Origin: Candidatus Woesearchaeota archaeon
GTDB lineage: Archaea > Nanobdellota > Nanobdellia > SCGC-AAA011-G17 > PNOQ01
Direction of reading: 5' to 3'
Length of the DNA stretch: 64,000 bases
NCBI GenBank assembly: GCA_043812195.1
Contig: JBDRML010000029.1
Location: forward strand, 1-64,000
Below are positions 42,334 through 64,000 of the stretch, piece after piece. The notes beneath the pieces are model-generated. The model did not search any database. It was not told the DNA's origin and saw nothing but the letters and a program-made list of their open reading frames with translations. Both the position numbers and the translations under genes were made by a program. Numbering within the stretch: the stretch's first letter is position 1; every line of letters starts with the position of its first letter.

Positions 42334-42993
42334 ATGAGAATCACCAAGAAGTTAGCAGAGTTATGTGGTATCATAGTTGGAGATGGTTGTATAACTTATT
42401 ATAAAAAGAATGGTGATTATAAGGTAGAAATTTTTGGAGATTATAAAGAATTAGAATATCATAGTTACATAAAAACTCTTTTCAAAGAAATATTCAATAA
42501 AGAGCCAAAAACAAAATTGAATAAAGATGGAATTTCTCTTTGCTTACATTCAAAAGAAGTCTTAGACAAATTGATAGGATTAGGTATTCCAATAGGAAAG
42601 AAAAAAGATGTAATTAGAATTCCTCCCAAAATAATGTCAAACAAAGGATTAACAAAATGTTTTATTAGAGGATTAGCCGATACAGATTTCAGTGTTTGTT
42701 TTAAAAAAGGAGGAAGAATCAAAAACTCTTATCCTAGAATTACTGTAGAAATGCATTCTAAAAAACTGATAAAAGATATAAAACTAAGTTTGGAATCTTT
42801 AGGAATTACATGCTACTACTATGAAAGAACCAGAAATACACCTTTTGGTATATTTCAATCATATAGTTTAGATATAAATGGAAACAAAAAATTTGAAAAA
42901 TGGATGAGATTAATAGGATTTAAAAATAAAAAACATCTATCAAAAATAGAATTCTGGAAGAAAAACGGATATTATCAAAAGAATTGTTCTTAA
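42334..42993 (+). CDS. free-standing two-motif LAGLIDADG endonuclease-family protein
   Basis: LAELCGIIVGDG and FIRGLADTDFS motifs, YPRI, KWMRLIGFKN; own TATA box. Confidence 0.88.
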   Translation: MRITKKLAELCGIIVGDGCITYYKKNGDYKVEIFGDYKELEYHSYIKTLFKEIFNKEPKTKLNKDGISLCLHSKEVLDKLIGLGIPIGKKKDVIRIPPKIMSNKGLTKCFIRGLADTDFSVCFKKGGRIKNSYPRITVEMHSKKLIKDIKLSLESLGITCYYYERTRNTPFGIFQSYSLDINGNKKFEKWMRLIGFKNKKHLSKIEFWKKNGYYQKNCS

Positions 42994-46228: not shown

Positions 46229-46880
46229 AGGAGATAAGCAAAAATGAAAGTACAAATTCCAAATGAACCAACAATCAATTTAGCAGAAGAGTTCGGAATA
46301 CATATTGGTGATGGGAGTATGAACTTTTATAAAGAAAAGGGATTGGTATCTATAGCAATAAATCCAAACGAAAAAAAATATATGGATTTCATTAAAAGAC
46401 TTTATTGGAGTCTATATAAAGTAAGTGTTAACTTAAGAAATTGGAGTAGGGCATATGGATTTCAACTAAGCTCTAACGAATTGGTTGAATTCAAATATAA
46501 ACAAGGTCTCCCATTAGGAAAAAAGGAAAATATAAATATTCCTCATTGGATAAAGAAAAACGAACAATATCAAAAAGCATGTCTAAGAGGAATATTTGAC
46601 ACAGATGGTACACTGTATATTGAAAAAAAGTACAATAAACCCTATCCAAGAATACAAATTTCGAGTATATCTCAAAATTTAATTAAAGATATACATGAAA
46701 TATTAGTCAATTTGGATTTTAAAGTTAGTCTATGGAAAGAAAATTTTAGAAATAAGAACTGGAAAACAAGACATGTAATTGCCTTAAGAGGATATAAACA
46801 AGTTCAAAAATGGATGGATGAAATAGGCACTAATAATCCCAAAAATTTAGAAAAATATAATAAGCTTATCTTCAGGTGAA
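46229..46880 (+). mobile_element. BHB/BHL-type tRNA intron encoding a homing endonuclease
   Basis: Terminal stem GGAGATAAGC/GCTTATCTTC, central helix CACT/GGTG, bulges TG^A and AA^G, outer helix AGAG/CTTT. Confidence 0.88.
46244..46879 (+). CDS. intron-encoded two-motif LAGLIDADG endonuclease
   Basis: LAEEFGIHIGDG and CLRGIFDTDG motifs; ORF lies wholly inside the tRNA-Lys intron. Confidence 0.9.
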   Translation: MKVQIPNEPTINLAEEFGIHIGDGSMNFYKEKGLVSIAINPNEKKYMDFIKRLYWSLYKVSVNLRNWSRAYGFQLSSNELVEFKYKQGLPLGKKENINIPHWIKKNEQYQKACLRGIFDTDGTLYIEKKYNKPYPRIQISSISQNLIKDIHEILVNLDFKVSLWKENFRNKNWKTRHVIALRGYKQVQKWMDEIGTNNPKNLEKYNKLIFR

Positions 46881-61195: not shown

Positions 61196-61286
61196 TGTTA
61201 TCAATAATCTTCGGAACTATTATCCAATTTTCTTATAATGCAAGTTTCCCCCTTTACATTACGCATTTAAATACAAAAAAATAAGC

Positions 61287-61300
61287 AAAAACTTTATAAA
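61287..61300 (+). promoter_or_regulatory. BRE-TATA promoter of EF-2, probably a leaderless transcript
   Basis: AAAAACTTTATAAA ends 24 nt before the ATG at 61325; similar motifs precede rps12 (~54891), rps2 (~24471) and tRNA-Tyr (~42115). Confidence 0.7.
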
Positions 61301-61324
61301 CAATTCCAATTCTCAAATTCTGTA

Positions 61325-64000
61325 ATGGCAGAAAAATCAGTAGAACAAATAAAAAAAGTAATGAATAACCCAAGCCATATAAGAAACATCGCTATCGCAG
61401 CCCATATCGATTTTTTTTGAGATAAATTCTCAAAAGACGAGTGCATGGGAAATGCATAGCACCAGATTCAAGGCTCATTCTAAGAGATGGAACTATGTTA
61501 ACTGCTAAAAAATTATTTAACTTAGCAGAGAAAAAAGGAACAAAATTTGAAGAAACGAAAGACCATATAATTTATGATACTAACTCATTAAATTTAGAAG
61601 CATTTTCCCTAAACAAAACTAATGGAAAATTAGAAAAAAAACCAATACAACTAGCCTGGAAATTAAAAGGTGGGGACTTAATAAATATTAAATTAAGAAA
61701 CAATTTCAACATTTCCACAACACCAGAACACAAATATTTAGTCTTAGAAAATTTAGAGTTTACAGAAAAAGAAGCTAAAGATATAAAATTAGGAGATAGA
61801 ATAATCTGCCCAAGAAAGCTTGAAACTAATTCAAATATTAACATAAAACGCACAATTCTACTAAAATTAGCTGAAAAAAGATTTTACGTTAAAGTAAACA
61901 AAATCTTAGGAGAAAAAATAAAAAAATTCGTTCTGAAAGAAAAAGAAACAATAAAAAAAATAAACAAAGAAATAAAGTATAAATCATTTTATCATGGTTC
62001 ATGGCAAAATAGATATTTATTAAAAGACTTAATAGAAATTTCAAGTTTAATAAATATAAACTTGGAGTATTTGTATAACAATATAGAAACAATAATTTAT
62101 AGAAGCGGAGCTCAAAGAGGAAAAAGCTCGCTGCCAACAAAATTACCACAAAACTTTCAAAACTTTTATTATCTAGCAGGATTGTTTGTAGGAGATGGAC
62201 ATCATAAAAAATTCATAGTCGGAAAAAATGAGTTAAAATCTAAATTTGTAGAAATTTGCAATGAATTAGGAATAAATGTAACATATAGAAATTATGAATA
62301 CAGAACAGAAGAAATAGTAACAAACGCTACCTTATTAGAAATATTAAACTCATTATTTGATTATCCAAAAGTCAAAAAAAGCCATAATGTAAAAATATCA
62401 GAATTTCTTCTACTATCTCCAAAAAAATATTCTTCAAAATTCTTAAGAGGATACTTCGATACTGATGGATGTGTAGAAAAAAGCAGAAGAGCAGTAACAA
62501 TATCGTCTGCCAGTGATAAAATGATAGCAGATTTAAGTATGTTTTTATTAAGATTCGGTTGCATACCAATCATAGAAAAAGACAACACAATAACAATTAG
62601 TGGACAATCCATGATAAATTTTATAGCAGAAATAGGATTTGAAATTAAAGCAAAAATAGCCAAAGCAAACTCCATAAAACAAACAATAATCGGAAGCATG
62701 GTTTCAGATGTTATACCAGTAACACATAGTAACGGAATGATTTCACTACAAAAAAACTTCACCAATTCAGAAAAATTAATTAATTTTTGTGAAAAAAATG
62801 ATATCAGCATAGAAAATATAAGTAAAATATTAAGTAAAGATATCTCATACATAGAAGTAAAAGCTATAGAAACAAAAAATGAAGAATTTGTATATGACTT
62901 CACAGTAAAAGACAACCATAACTTTGCTGCAGAAGGTATGATTATTCATAATACCACATTTTCAGACAATCTTTTAGCAGGTGCAGGCATGATTTCTAAA
63001 GAACTAGCAGGTAAACAATTAGCCTTAGATTTTCACGAAGATGAGGCAACAAGAGGTATTACAATAGATTCAGCTAGCGTATCTATGCTTCACACAGTAA
63101 AGGGAGAAGATTACTTAATCAATTTAATAGACACACCAGGTCACGTAGATTTTGGTGGAGATGTTACTAGGGCTATGAGAGCAGTTGACGGTGCAATTGT
63201 ATTAGTAGATGCAGTTGAAGGAATAATGCCTCAAACAGAAACAGTTCTAAAACAAGCTCTAAGAGAAATGGTAAAACCAGTTCTTTTCATAAATAAAGTT
63301 GACCGTTTAATCAAAGAAGTTAAACTAACACCACAAGCAATGCAAGAAAGATTCATTAAAATTATATCAGACGCTAATGGGTTCATTGAAACTTTTGCAC
63401 CAGACGAATTCAAAAAGAAATGGCAATCAAACGTACAAGACGGAAGCGTAGCTTTTGGTTCAGCATTTCATAATTGGGCATTAAGTTTCCCATACATGCA
63501 AGAAAAAGGAATAAGCTTCAAAGATATTATAGATGCTTATGAAAAAGAAGATTGGAAAATTTTAGCAAAGAAAGCACCATTACATGAGGTTGTTTTGGGT
63601 ATGATAATTAAACACCACGTAAATCCAATCACAGCACAAGCATACAGAATTCCAAAAATATGGAAAGGAGATTTAGATACAGAAATAGGAAAATCTTTAT
63701 TAAATTGTGATCCAAAAGGACCTGTAGCATTTATAGTAACAAAAATAGTAATAGATAAACATGCAGGAGAAGTATCTGCAGGAAGATTATTCTCAGGAAC
63801 ATTAAAACAAGGTGATGAAGTTTGGCTTAACATGGGTAAAAAGAAAGTTAGGTTACAACAGGTATCAATTTACAAAGGCGCACAAAGAACTGCTTTTAAT
63901 GAAATTCCAGCAGGAAACATAGCAGGTTTAGTAGGATTAAAAGATACATTCGCAGGTGAAACTATATCTTCAGAACCAATGGAACCTTTCGAAGCAATTA
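61325..64000 (+). CDS. fusA: translation elongation factor EF-2, 5' part, interrupted by a 32-nt intron and a 500-aa intein; runs off the window
   Basis: Exon 1 (61325-61411) MAEK...IRNIAIAAHID; exon 2 from 61444 HGK-[intein]-TTFSDNLLAGAGMIS...RGITI...LIDTPGHVDFGGDVTRAMRAVDGA...FINKVDR. Confidence 0.96.
61412..61443 (+). other. candidate BHB pre-mRNA intron (32 nt) in EF-2
   Basis: Exon helix CCCAT/ATGGG, central helix ATCG/CGAG, bulges AT^T and TG^C, 10-bp intron stem with TAAAT loop; removal restores AHID-HGK in frame. Confidence 0.85.
61453..62952 (+). mobile_element. intein with LAGLIDADG homing endonuclease domain in the EF-2 P-loop
   Basis: Starts CIAPDS after HGK; block B TTPEHK; YYLAGLFVGDG and FLRGYFDTDG; ends VYDFTV..NHNFAAEGMIIHN followed by Thr; 1500 nt, with both ends in the same frame. 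Confidence 0.95.

Follow-up and report, generated by a model that had tools for sequence, protein, structure and literature searches.

The pre-mRNA of cbf5 in Crenarchaeota reportedly contains a bulge-helix-bulge (BHB) intron, a finding ascribed to Watanabe in 2002, and BHB introns of archaeal rRNA may carry LAGLIDADG endonucleases, for example I-DmoI. Going by the accessible portion of PMC7714728, the cbf5 mRNA was by 2020 the only case of such an intron reported in a coding region, together with one case in a 5′ untranslated region in Haloferax. Inteins inserted in P-loops are known from MCM (site a), DnaB (site b), RFC and aIF2, according to the accessible part of the survey by Novikova 2016 (PMC4760082). 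For an intron in aEF-2 or aIF2-gamma we found no report in the searchable literature, a coverage from which subscription journals fall out. Here we describe both kinds of element side by side in the aEF-2 gene of a Candidatus Woesearchaeota archaeon from groundwater (genome of 0.94 Mb, designated G000). The gene begins near the end of the 64,000-nt stretch of contig JBDRML010000029.1 that was analysed, referred to below as the window. A 32-nt insert that is predicted to be a BHB intron and a 500-aa LAGLIDADG intein interrupt its P-loop codons with a spacer of exactly 9 nt, CATGGGAAA, between them. We consider it very likely that these are two unrelated self-removing elements that have converged on one conserved stretch, and not a linked unit.

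The reading frames define both interruptions. Exon 1 (61325..61411, + strand) translates from the ATG at 61325 into 29 codons, MAEKSVEQIKKVMNNPSHIRNIAIAAHID, which hold the first half of the G1/P-loop, and which align with uninterrupted orthologues that read ...IRNIAIAAHIDHGKTTFSD. The codons AHID end at 61411; the frame then continues with FF and closes at a TGA (61418-61420). The frame of exon 2 is in turn closed by a TAA (61423-61425) and open from 61426. Exon 2 starts with the codons HGK (61444..61452, +), the sole N-extein residues that separate the intron from the intein. Beyond the intein the C-extein, TTFSDNLLAGAG... (TTFSDNLL; 62953..64000, +), continues past the end of the window, and the 1198-aa open frame ends near C29:65020. 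Indeed, the translated gene matches the Pfam families GTP_EFTU (6e-44), Intein_splicing (2.7e-28) and LAGLIDADG_3 (7.1e-15), all of which pass their cut-offs. A preliminary description of this locus had placed the intron end at 61443 and the intein start at 61453 and had called the intein a LAGLIDADG intein; the positions and the spacing are exact, and the Pfam matches bear out the classification. Its statement that the P-loop requires both RNA and protein splicing agrees with the AHID-HGK-T anatomy, to which we add the type of the intron, left unnamed there. A TATA-like box, TTTATAAA, can be read 24 nt 5′ of the ATG (61293..61300, +), a spacing which suggests that the aEF-2 mRNA may be leaderless or near-leaderless.

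Gapless coverage of the junction was found in two further contigs, X1 (record 2, 61331-61523, 0 differences) and X3 (record 9, 61326-61782, 4 differences). Because these contigs, which come from two studies, one of them possibly the window's source sample, reproduce the junction, the arrangement of intron, HGK and intein is not an assembly accident. In addition, no joint that skips the intron or the intein appeared when four DNA sequencing runs were compared with the locus. We regard it as extremely improbable that the gene is not spliced at the RNA level, being either broken (a pseudogene or an assembly error) or read through by ribosomal frameshifting or bypassing. In favor of such a reading, a run of eight Ts (61411-61418) precedes the stop, and RNA splicing at this site is itself a prediction. 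However, a simple frameshift is ruled out, since the upstream frame ends at 61418-61420 and the downstream frame, with its stop at 61423-61425, is closed until 61426; the two do not overlap, and no single shift can connect them. Inspection by eye showed no take-off and landing codon pair suited to bypassing, G000 has no second aEF-2 copy, and the junction recurs in independent contigs. Finally, as described below, covariation backs an RNA structure whose predicted cuts restore the frame in 32/34 alleles.

On the grounds of frame logic, RNA folding and covariation, the insert (61412..61443, +), whose 32 nt are not a multiple of three, is a predicted BHB intron and a predicted substrate of the tRNA-splicing endonuclease. 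The RNA of 61385-61470 folds at -25 kcal/mol (z -4.1), and none of 200 shuffled sequences was equally stable. In this predicted fold, after a check of its register, the BHB motif spans 61401..61449 (+). An exon-exon helix pairs CCCAU (61401-61405) with AUGGG (61445-61449), and a central helix of three pairs joins UCG (61407-61409) to CGA (61438-61440). Two bulges of 3 nt each, AUU on the 5′ side (61410-61412) and UGC on the 3′ side (61442-61444), are accompanied by a 10-bp hairpin within the intron (61413-61422 with 61428-61437). BHB substrates are cleaved after the second base of either 3-nt bulge. The cuts predicted in this way, after 61411 and after 61443, are the sole junctions that restore AHID-HGK, and the same holds for the relatives. 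Both candidate enzymes are encoded in G000, EndA by a 181-aa open reading frame (ORF; PF01974, 93.8 bits) and RtcB by a gene matching PF01139 with 480.7 bits. A search of 61200-61600 against Rfam gave no match at E up to 1. Left unspliced, the mRNA would yield a peptide of only about 31 aa. With the unspliced frame ending at the TGA of 61418-61420 and no Shine-Dalgarno-like sequence visible by eye before the GTG at 61441, the intein endonuclease would plausibly be made only after the mRNA has been spliced.

The second element is a class-1 intein of 500 aa (61453..62952, +, 1500 nt), recognizable by its Pfam match and by its motifs: Cys1, a TTPEH block B, a C-terminal HN and Thr+1. It starts with CIAPDS... 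and ends with ...MIIHN, the HN codons lying at 62947-62952 and Thr+1 at 62953, all in frame. The domain matching LAGLIDADG_3 occupies 62434..62637 (+), and both LAGLIDADG motifs (LAGLFVGDG and RGYFDTDG in translation) retain the acidic residue, as would be expected of the endonuclease that we predict here. Homologous inteins occupy the same K|T site in 24 alleles of relatives. All 25 are homologous, with 16 at full length (475-523 aa) and nine as mini-inteins (183-213 aa); the intein is missing from 130 of the 156 alleles surveyed and is present in 25 at the identical K|T point. One full-length relative, the 513-aa intein at locus L101 (genome G106), is interrupted by a single in-frame stop at a position that Glu occupies in a relative; the gene is otherwise intact.

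Taken together, these features suggest the following course of expression. In the pre-mRNA, the partners of exon bases 61401-61409 would be exon bases 61445-61449 together with the 3′ end of the intron, a pairing that would present two 3-nt bulges flanking a short central helix. RtcB would join the exons once EndA had cut after 61411 and 61443. The spliced mRNA would be translated into a precursor that contains the 500-aa LAGLIDADG intein after the P-loop Lys, and the intein, to judge from its motifs, would excise itself and join HGK to TTFSD.

To place the locus among its relatives we drew on 240 genomes of the same order. aEF-2 was found in 220 of these, and the P-loop region was read for 156 alleles from 155 genomes whose titles name Woesearchaeota or Nanoarchaeota; about 64 of the 220 genes, mostly from a divergent clade with AHIHHGK, lie outside the survey. 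The loci of G069 and G209, 100% identical over 2570 nt, were entered as one allele. These two loci (L142 and L139, respectively) are filed in different families despite this identity, and one contig was seemingly binned twice. The 156 alleles comprised 102 that are empty, 28 with an intron only, 18 with an intein only, seven with both, and one odd allele with a 10-nt deletion. In this last allele, from G037 (L035, near position 2586), the deletion removes approximately the xAAH codons of the aEF-2 P-loop, reaches up to the H|I intron position and breaks the frame; an intron may have been lost imprecisely, or the gene may be a pseudogene or misassembled.

BHB introns, 30-39 nt in length, were thus counted in 35/156 alleles. 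They number 36 altogether, and among the 34 alleles with a single intron the length is not a multiple of three in 24. Measured from the 3′ splice site to the intein insertion point, introns lie at position 1 (one allele), 2 (six alleles), 9 (the D|H position of the window; 20 alleles, six of them with an intein too), 13 (five alleles, one with an intein too) and 15 (two alleles). One further allele (G178, L130) has introns at positions 13 and 2 jointly, such that two 31-nt introns flank an 11-nt micro-exon, AGATCATGGAA, some 60-120 nt upstream of position 2600. All 36 introns thus precede the intein site, at a distance of 1-15 nt, with none downstream, and among the genes listed none occurs in the 349 residues beyond it. 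Of 28 families, 14 had introns and 14 had inteins, seven being common to both, and the allele state was mixed within 17 of 93 genera. Family f13, for example, has introns in seven alleles, an intein in one, and no empty allele.

The survey also supports the predicted structure through strong covariation. For the 20 D|H introns the BHB structure pairs 85.9% of cells as compared to 68.5% after shuffling, and the covariation score is 0.507 as compared to 0.172; neither value was reached in any of 500 shuffles, and slid registers pair only 29-45%. All eight pairs of the intron hairpin vary on both sides. Even the synonymous third position of the Ile codon in the exon varies together with the intron, as ATC is accompanied by an intron G in 12 of these alleles and ATT by an intron A in seven, with one exception. 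Across the 34 single-intron alleles the central helix has 4/4 pairs in 17, 3/4 in 15 and fewer in two, and cuts in the standard register restore the frame in 32. The exon-exon helix is not clear at positions 13, 15 and 2. Since the same kind of insert recurs with compensatory changes in 34 further aEF-2 alleles, the insert in the window is far beyond chance.

Pattern scans extended this distribution. A scan of the 240 genomes for the D|H arrangement recovered 21 known introns, that of G209 included, and three more (G163, G200 and G204). It also gave 21 further matches, which we presume to be chance since the reversed pattern gave 23. A narrower D|H pattern applied to about 185,000 species genomes yielded 82 loci. 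All 26 with archaeal titles are true aEF-2 D|H introns, and the 56 bacterial loci are presumed to be chance matches. The archaeal titles name Woesearchaeota, Nanoarchaeota and Nanoarchaeia, with two Aenigmatarchaeota and one 'Methanosarcinales'; this last locus (L211) has a Woesearchaeota-like aEF-2 and was probably mis-binned. Of the introns that share a position in different families, only some are clearly alike (similarity 0.73-0.92). Similarity between aIF2-gamma and aEF-2 introns is at best 0.52-0.68, and shuffled maxima are 0.58-0.70; because this does not exceed chance, we claim no common origin across genes or positions. As for what makes this stretch receptive, it is possible that its structure is predisposed, as the near-palindromic GCC CAT ATC GAT CAT GGG supplies the exon helix at D|H, although this fails at the other positions. 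An origin of the central helix by target-site duplication was also considered and rejected: it suits the palindrome ATCGAT at D|H and, by eye, fails elsewhere.

With both elements common in the order, the survey can be used to ask whether they travel together. The preliminary description had suggested that the intron, lacking an endonuclease of its own and lying 9 nt away, hitchhikes by being co-converted whenever the intein homes. Homing is indeed established to co-convert flanking DNA, and one family trio, G038, G174 and G175, has an intron and a mini-intein in common. Nevertheless we find hitchhiking improbable. The tabulation of intron and intein across related genes that the same description had proposed gives an independent distribution, the outcome that it had itself set against hitchhiking: both elements occur in seven alleles as compared to 5.65 expected (35 with an intron, 25 with an intein, n = 155; odds ratio 1.42, Fisher p 0.45), in raw counts of related genomes that ignore kinship and leave about 64 genomes outside. 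At positions 1-2 an intein accompanies none of seven introns (p 0.59). The 28 intron-only alleles stand against seven with both, a ratio of 4:1, four of the seven double alleles contain mini-inteins without an endonuclease, and in half of the 14 intron-bearing families no intein was seen. The intein tree, moreover, does not cluster by intron. The intron label takes five changes on it, of which the starred branches force at least three; 72 of 500 shuffles need no more than five. The inteins of G067 and G043 are the nearest to that of G006, and the intein of G160 is nearest to that of G113, all three in intron-less alleles; only the trio named above, from family f15, forms one clade. Thus neither the counts nor the intein tree reveal co-inheritance of the intron with the endonuclease-bearing element. 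Given independent counts, intron-less closest relatives and the 4:1 excess of intron-only alleles, hitchhiking is unneeded and leaves the spread of the intron unexplained. The best reading of the adjacency in the window is a chance meeting of two common elements that favor one stretch, not a linked device.

Several points pull the other way, and the disregard of kinship in these association tests is one of them. For the D|H introns taken alone the odds ratio for an accompanying intein is 2.4 (p 0.11), which is what hitchhiking would lead one to look for. The fourth pair of the central helix in G000 is a mismatch, A61406/G61441, and its EndA is a 181-aa unit of the alpha type, whose tolerance of an A/G mismatch is assumed here. 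A larger 3′ bulge is required in two relatives, G053 and G153. Two metatranscriptome runs from one study contain almost no words of 61200-62400, and splicing is predicted from DNA. Lastly, intron finds were confined to two GTPase genes, both of which bear P-loop inteins as well. This restriction hints that the two elements are perhaps not fully unrelated.

The second of these genes encodes aIF2-gamma. When the order was scanned with the patterns GHVD|HGK and GH|VDHGK, BHB introns emerged at two positions of the aIF2-gamma P-loop, namely four at D|H (G123, G125, G150 and G172) and 13 in the His codon, with a central helix of UUGG/CCAA that is 4/4 paired in 13/13. The latter include a 30-nt intron of G000 itself (GGAC|...CCAAAG|AC; C17:34659-34709, - strand, locus L311), detected by the pattern scan and with a fully paired central helix. 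aIF2-gamma inteins likewise follow the P-loop Lys (HGK|CL...HN|TTL) in G043, G039, G134 and G170 (L283, L284, L286 and L285, respectively), and in G170 the intein occurs together with a His-codon intron. These counts are minima, since the survey of aIF2-gamma relied on patterns plus 20 regions picked by short or long open frames. For EF-1alpha, which has the same GHVDHGK codons, there was no intron match in those scans, and none of the 150 listed frames was intein-sized. In addition, an ORF of 428-451 aa runs in frame into exon 1 of aIF2-gamma in three genomes from three families, G000 (L311:1546-2829, -), G041 and G154, the other two coordinates being L305:1380-2732 and L309:1545-2885. Its LAGLIDADG_3 matches are marginal (22.0 and 23.2 bits; cut-off 22.5) and absent from G041. 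This ORF may nonetheless encode a homing endonuclease parked next to its target.

Such a gathering of elements raises the question of whether the mini-introns serve as spliceable breaks in a LAGLIDADG target, either protecting alleles against homing or, in collaborative homing, marking the endonuclease's own allele as immune. We hold this to be unlikely, despite a good deal that fits it. All 36 aEF-2 introns lie at five positions close to the intein site, and the allele state turns over quickly, with 17/93 genera mixed and family f13 without an empty allele. aEF-2 and aIF2-gamma have P-loop inteins and introns where EF-1alpha has neither, and the ORF of about 430 aa with its marginal LAGLIDADG_3 match immediately precedes exon 1 of the intron-bearing aIF2-gamma gene. 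There is also a precedent for collaborative homing between a free-standing endonuclease and an ORF-less intron, as set out in the accessible part of PMC3984707. On the other side, double alleles are in no short supply (seven as compared to 5.65 expected), and the introns are exclusively upstream of the intein site, though a target should reach to both sides. For the other P-loop inteins of G000 (on C1, C31 and C3) the N-extein is contiguous and shares the intein's frame, and no intron adjoins it. Furthermore, the upstream ORF scores just 22-23 bits, with zero families matched in G041, and cleavage of the target by the intein endonuclease is hypothetical. We therefore offer only tentatively, and with the odds against it, the broader reading that the P-loop mini-introns take part, at the RNA level, in an arms race over translational-GTPase P-loop DNA, either countering the LAGLIDADG endonucleases aimed at it or acting as their partners. 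Inteins would carry these endonucleases in aEF-2 and aIF2-gamma, and the fused upstream ORF of aIF2-gamma would encode one in G000, G041 and G154. If this were true, each new intron position would break the DNA target while the tRNA-splicing machinery restored the message, which would account for five positions within 15 nt and for the turnover of states within genera.

That the introns instead tie the synthesis of aEF-2 and aIF2-gamma to tRNA-splicing capacity appears to us decidedly improbable. Both hosts are translational GTPases, an unspliced mRNA would give no more than the peptide of about 31 aa, and the genome relies on tRNA introns: aragorn identified only 19 tRNA genes in G000, nine with predicted introns, and many other tRNAs are probably masked by unusual introns. 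Against such regulatory coupling, the introns are patchy (35/156 alleles), and their multiple positions shift among close relatives in a manner that resembles neutral or selfish turnover and not conserved control.

G000 as a whole is rich in inteins, with 23 Intein_splicing matches in about 10 genes and 26 LAGLIDADG_3 matches. Some of the latter are free-standing, in ORFs of 213-254 aa; two are in the window (42661-42918 and 46568-46828, +) and others lie at C29:75874, 99130 and 109662. A scan of the genome for BHB motifs able to connect two open frames gave 120, 25 and 15 hits at three stringencies as compared to 104, 21 and 13 for a mirror decoy, and hence no excess; the scan that allows no central-helix mismatch misses the aEF-2 intron, which the looser scan recovers.

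These observations have several consequences. BHB introns in coding regions, for which cbf5 stands alone in the searchable literature, are here predicted in two essential translation GTPases. In aEF-2 they occur in about one quarter of the alleles across the order, and they are found in records titled as other DPANN groups as well. Gene callers will mis-annotate such essential genes as truncated or frameshifted. Moreover, the alleles form a natural series, from empty ones through those with only an intron (at four or five positions) or only an intein to those with both, and this series is well suited to testing whether an intron blocks a homing endonuclease.

Among known systems, the archaeal rRNA BHB introns exemplified by I-DmoI resemble the present case in that BHB introns are tied to LAGLIDADG enzymes. 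They differ in that their endonuclease is intron-encoded, whereas the aEF-2 intron is far too short for coding. The aEF-2 intein itself is similar to the P-loop inteins treated in the accessible text of PMC4760082, being of class 1, with a LAGLIDADG endonuclease, and inserted after the Lys of GK[ST]. In the main text of that article 'elongation factor' and 'EF-2' occur 0 times, although its supplements may list aEF-2, and the part accessible to us describes no adjacent RNA intron. The adjoining inteins of haloarchaeal MCM (PMC10643990, accessible part) likewise show two elements close together in one conserved motif, with a phylogeny that gives no support for co-homing; both of those are endonuclease-bearing inteins, whereas here one of the two is an RNA intron without an endonuclease. 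Another parallel is the collaborative homing of psbA and F-CphI (PMC3984707, as far as its accessible text goes), where an endonuclease-less intron sits at the target of a separately encoded homing endonuclease, a target site that is hypothetical in our case. There, however, the intron belongs to a phage and splices itself as a group I ribozyme, whereas the introns described here are BHB introns of 30-39 nt that would use host enzymes, and co-inheritance was looked for and not found. A further likeness is to the cbf5 pre-mRNA intron of Crenarchaeota (Yokobori 2009, PMC2738675), reportedly also a short coding-region BHB intron that is handled by the tRNA-splicing endonuclease and a ligase and is gained and lost among relatives. 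The introns described here differ from it in residing in aEF-2 and aIF2-gamma and in a DPANN-type lineage, the Woesearchaeota/Nanoarchaeota. In these organisms the introns occupy several positions within 15-17 nt, always in P-loop codons, and in one gene two of them enclose an 11-nt micro-exon.

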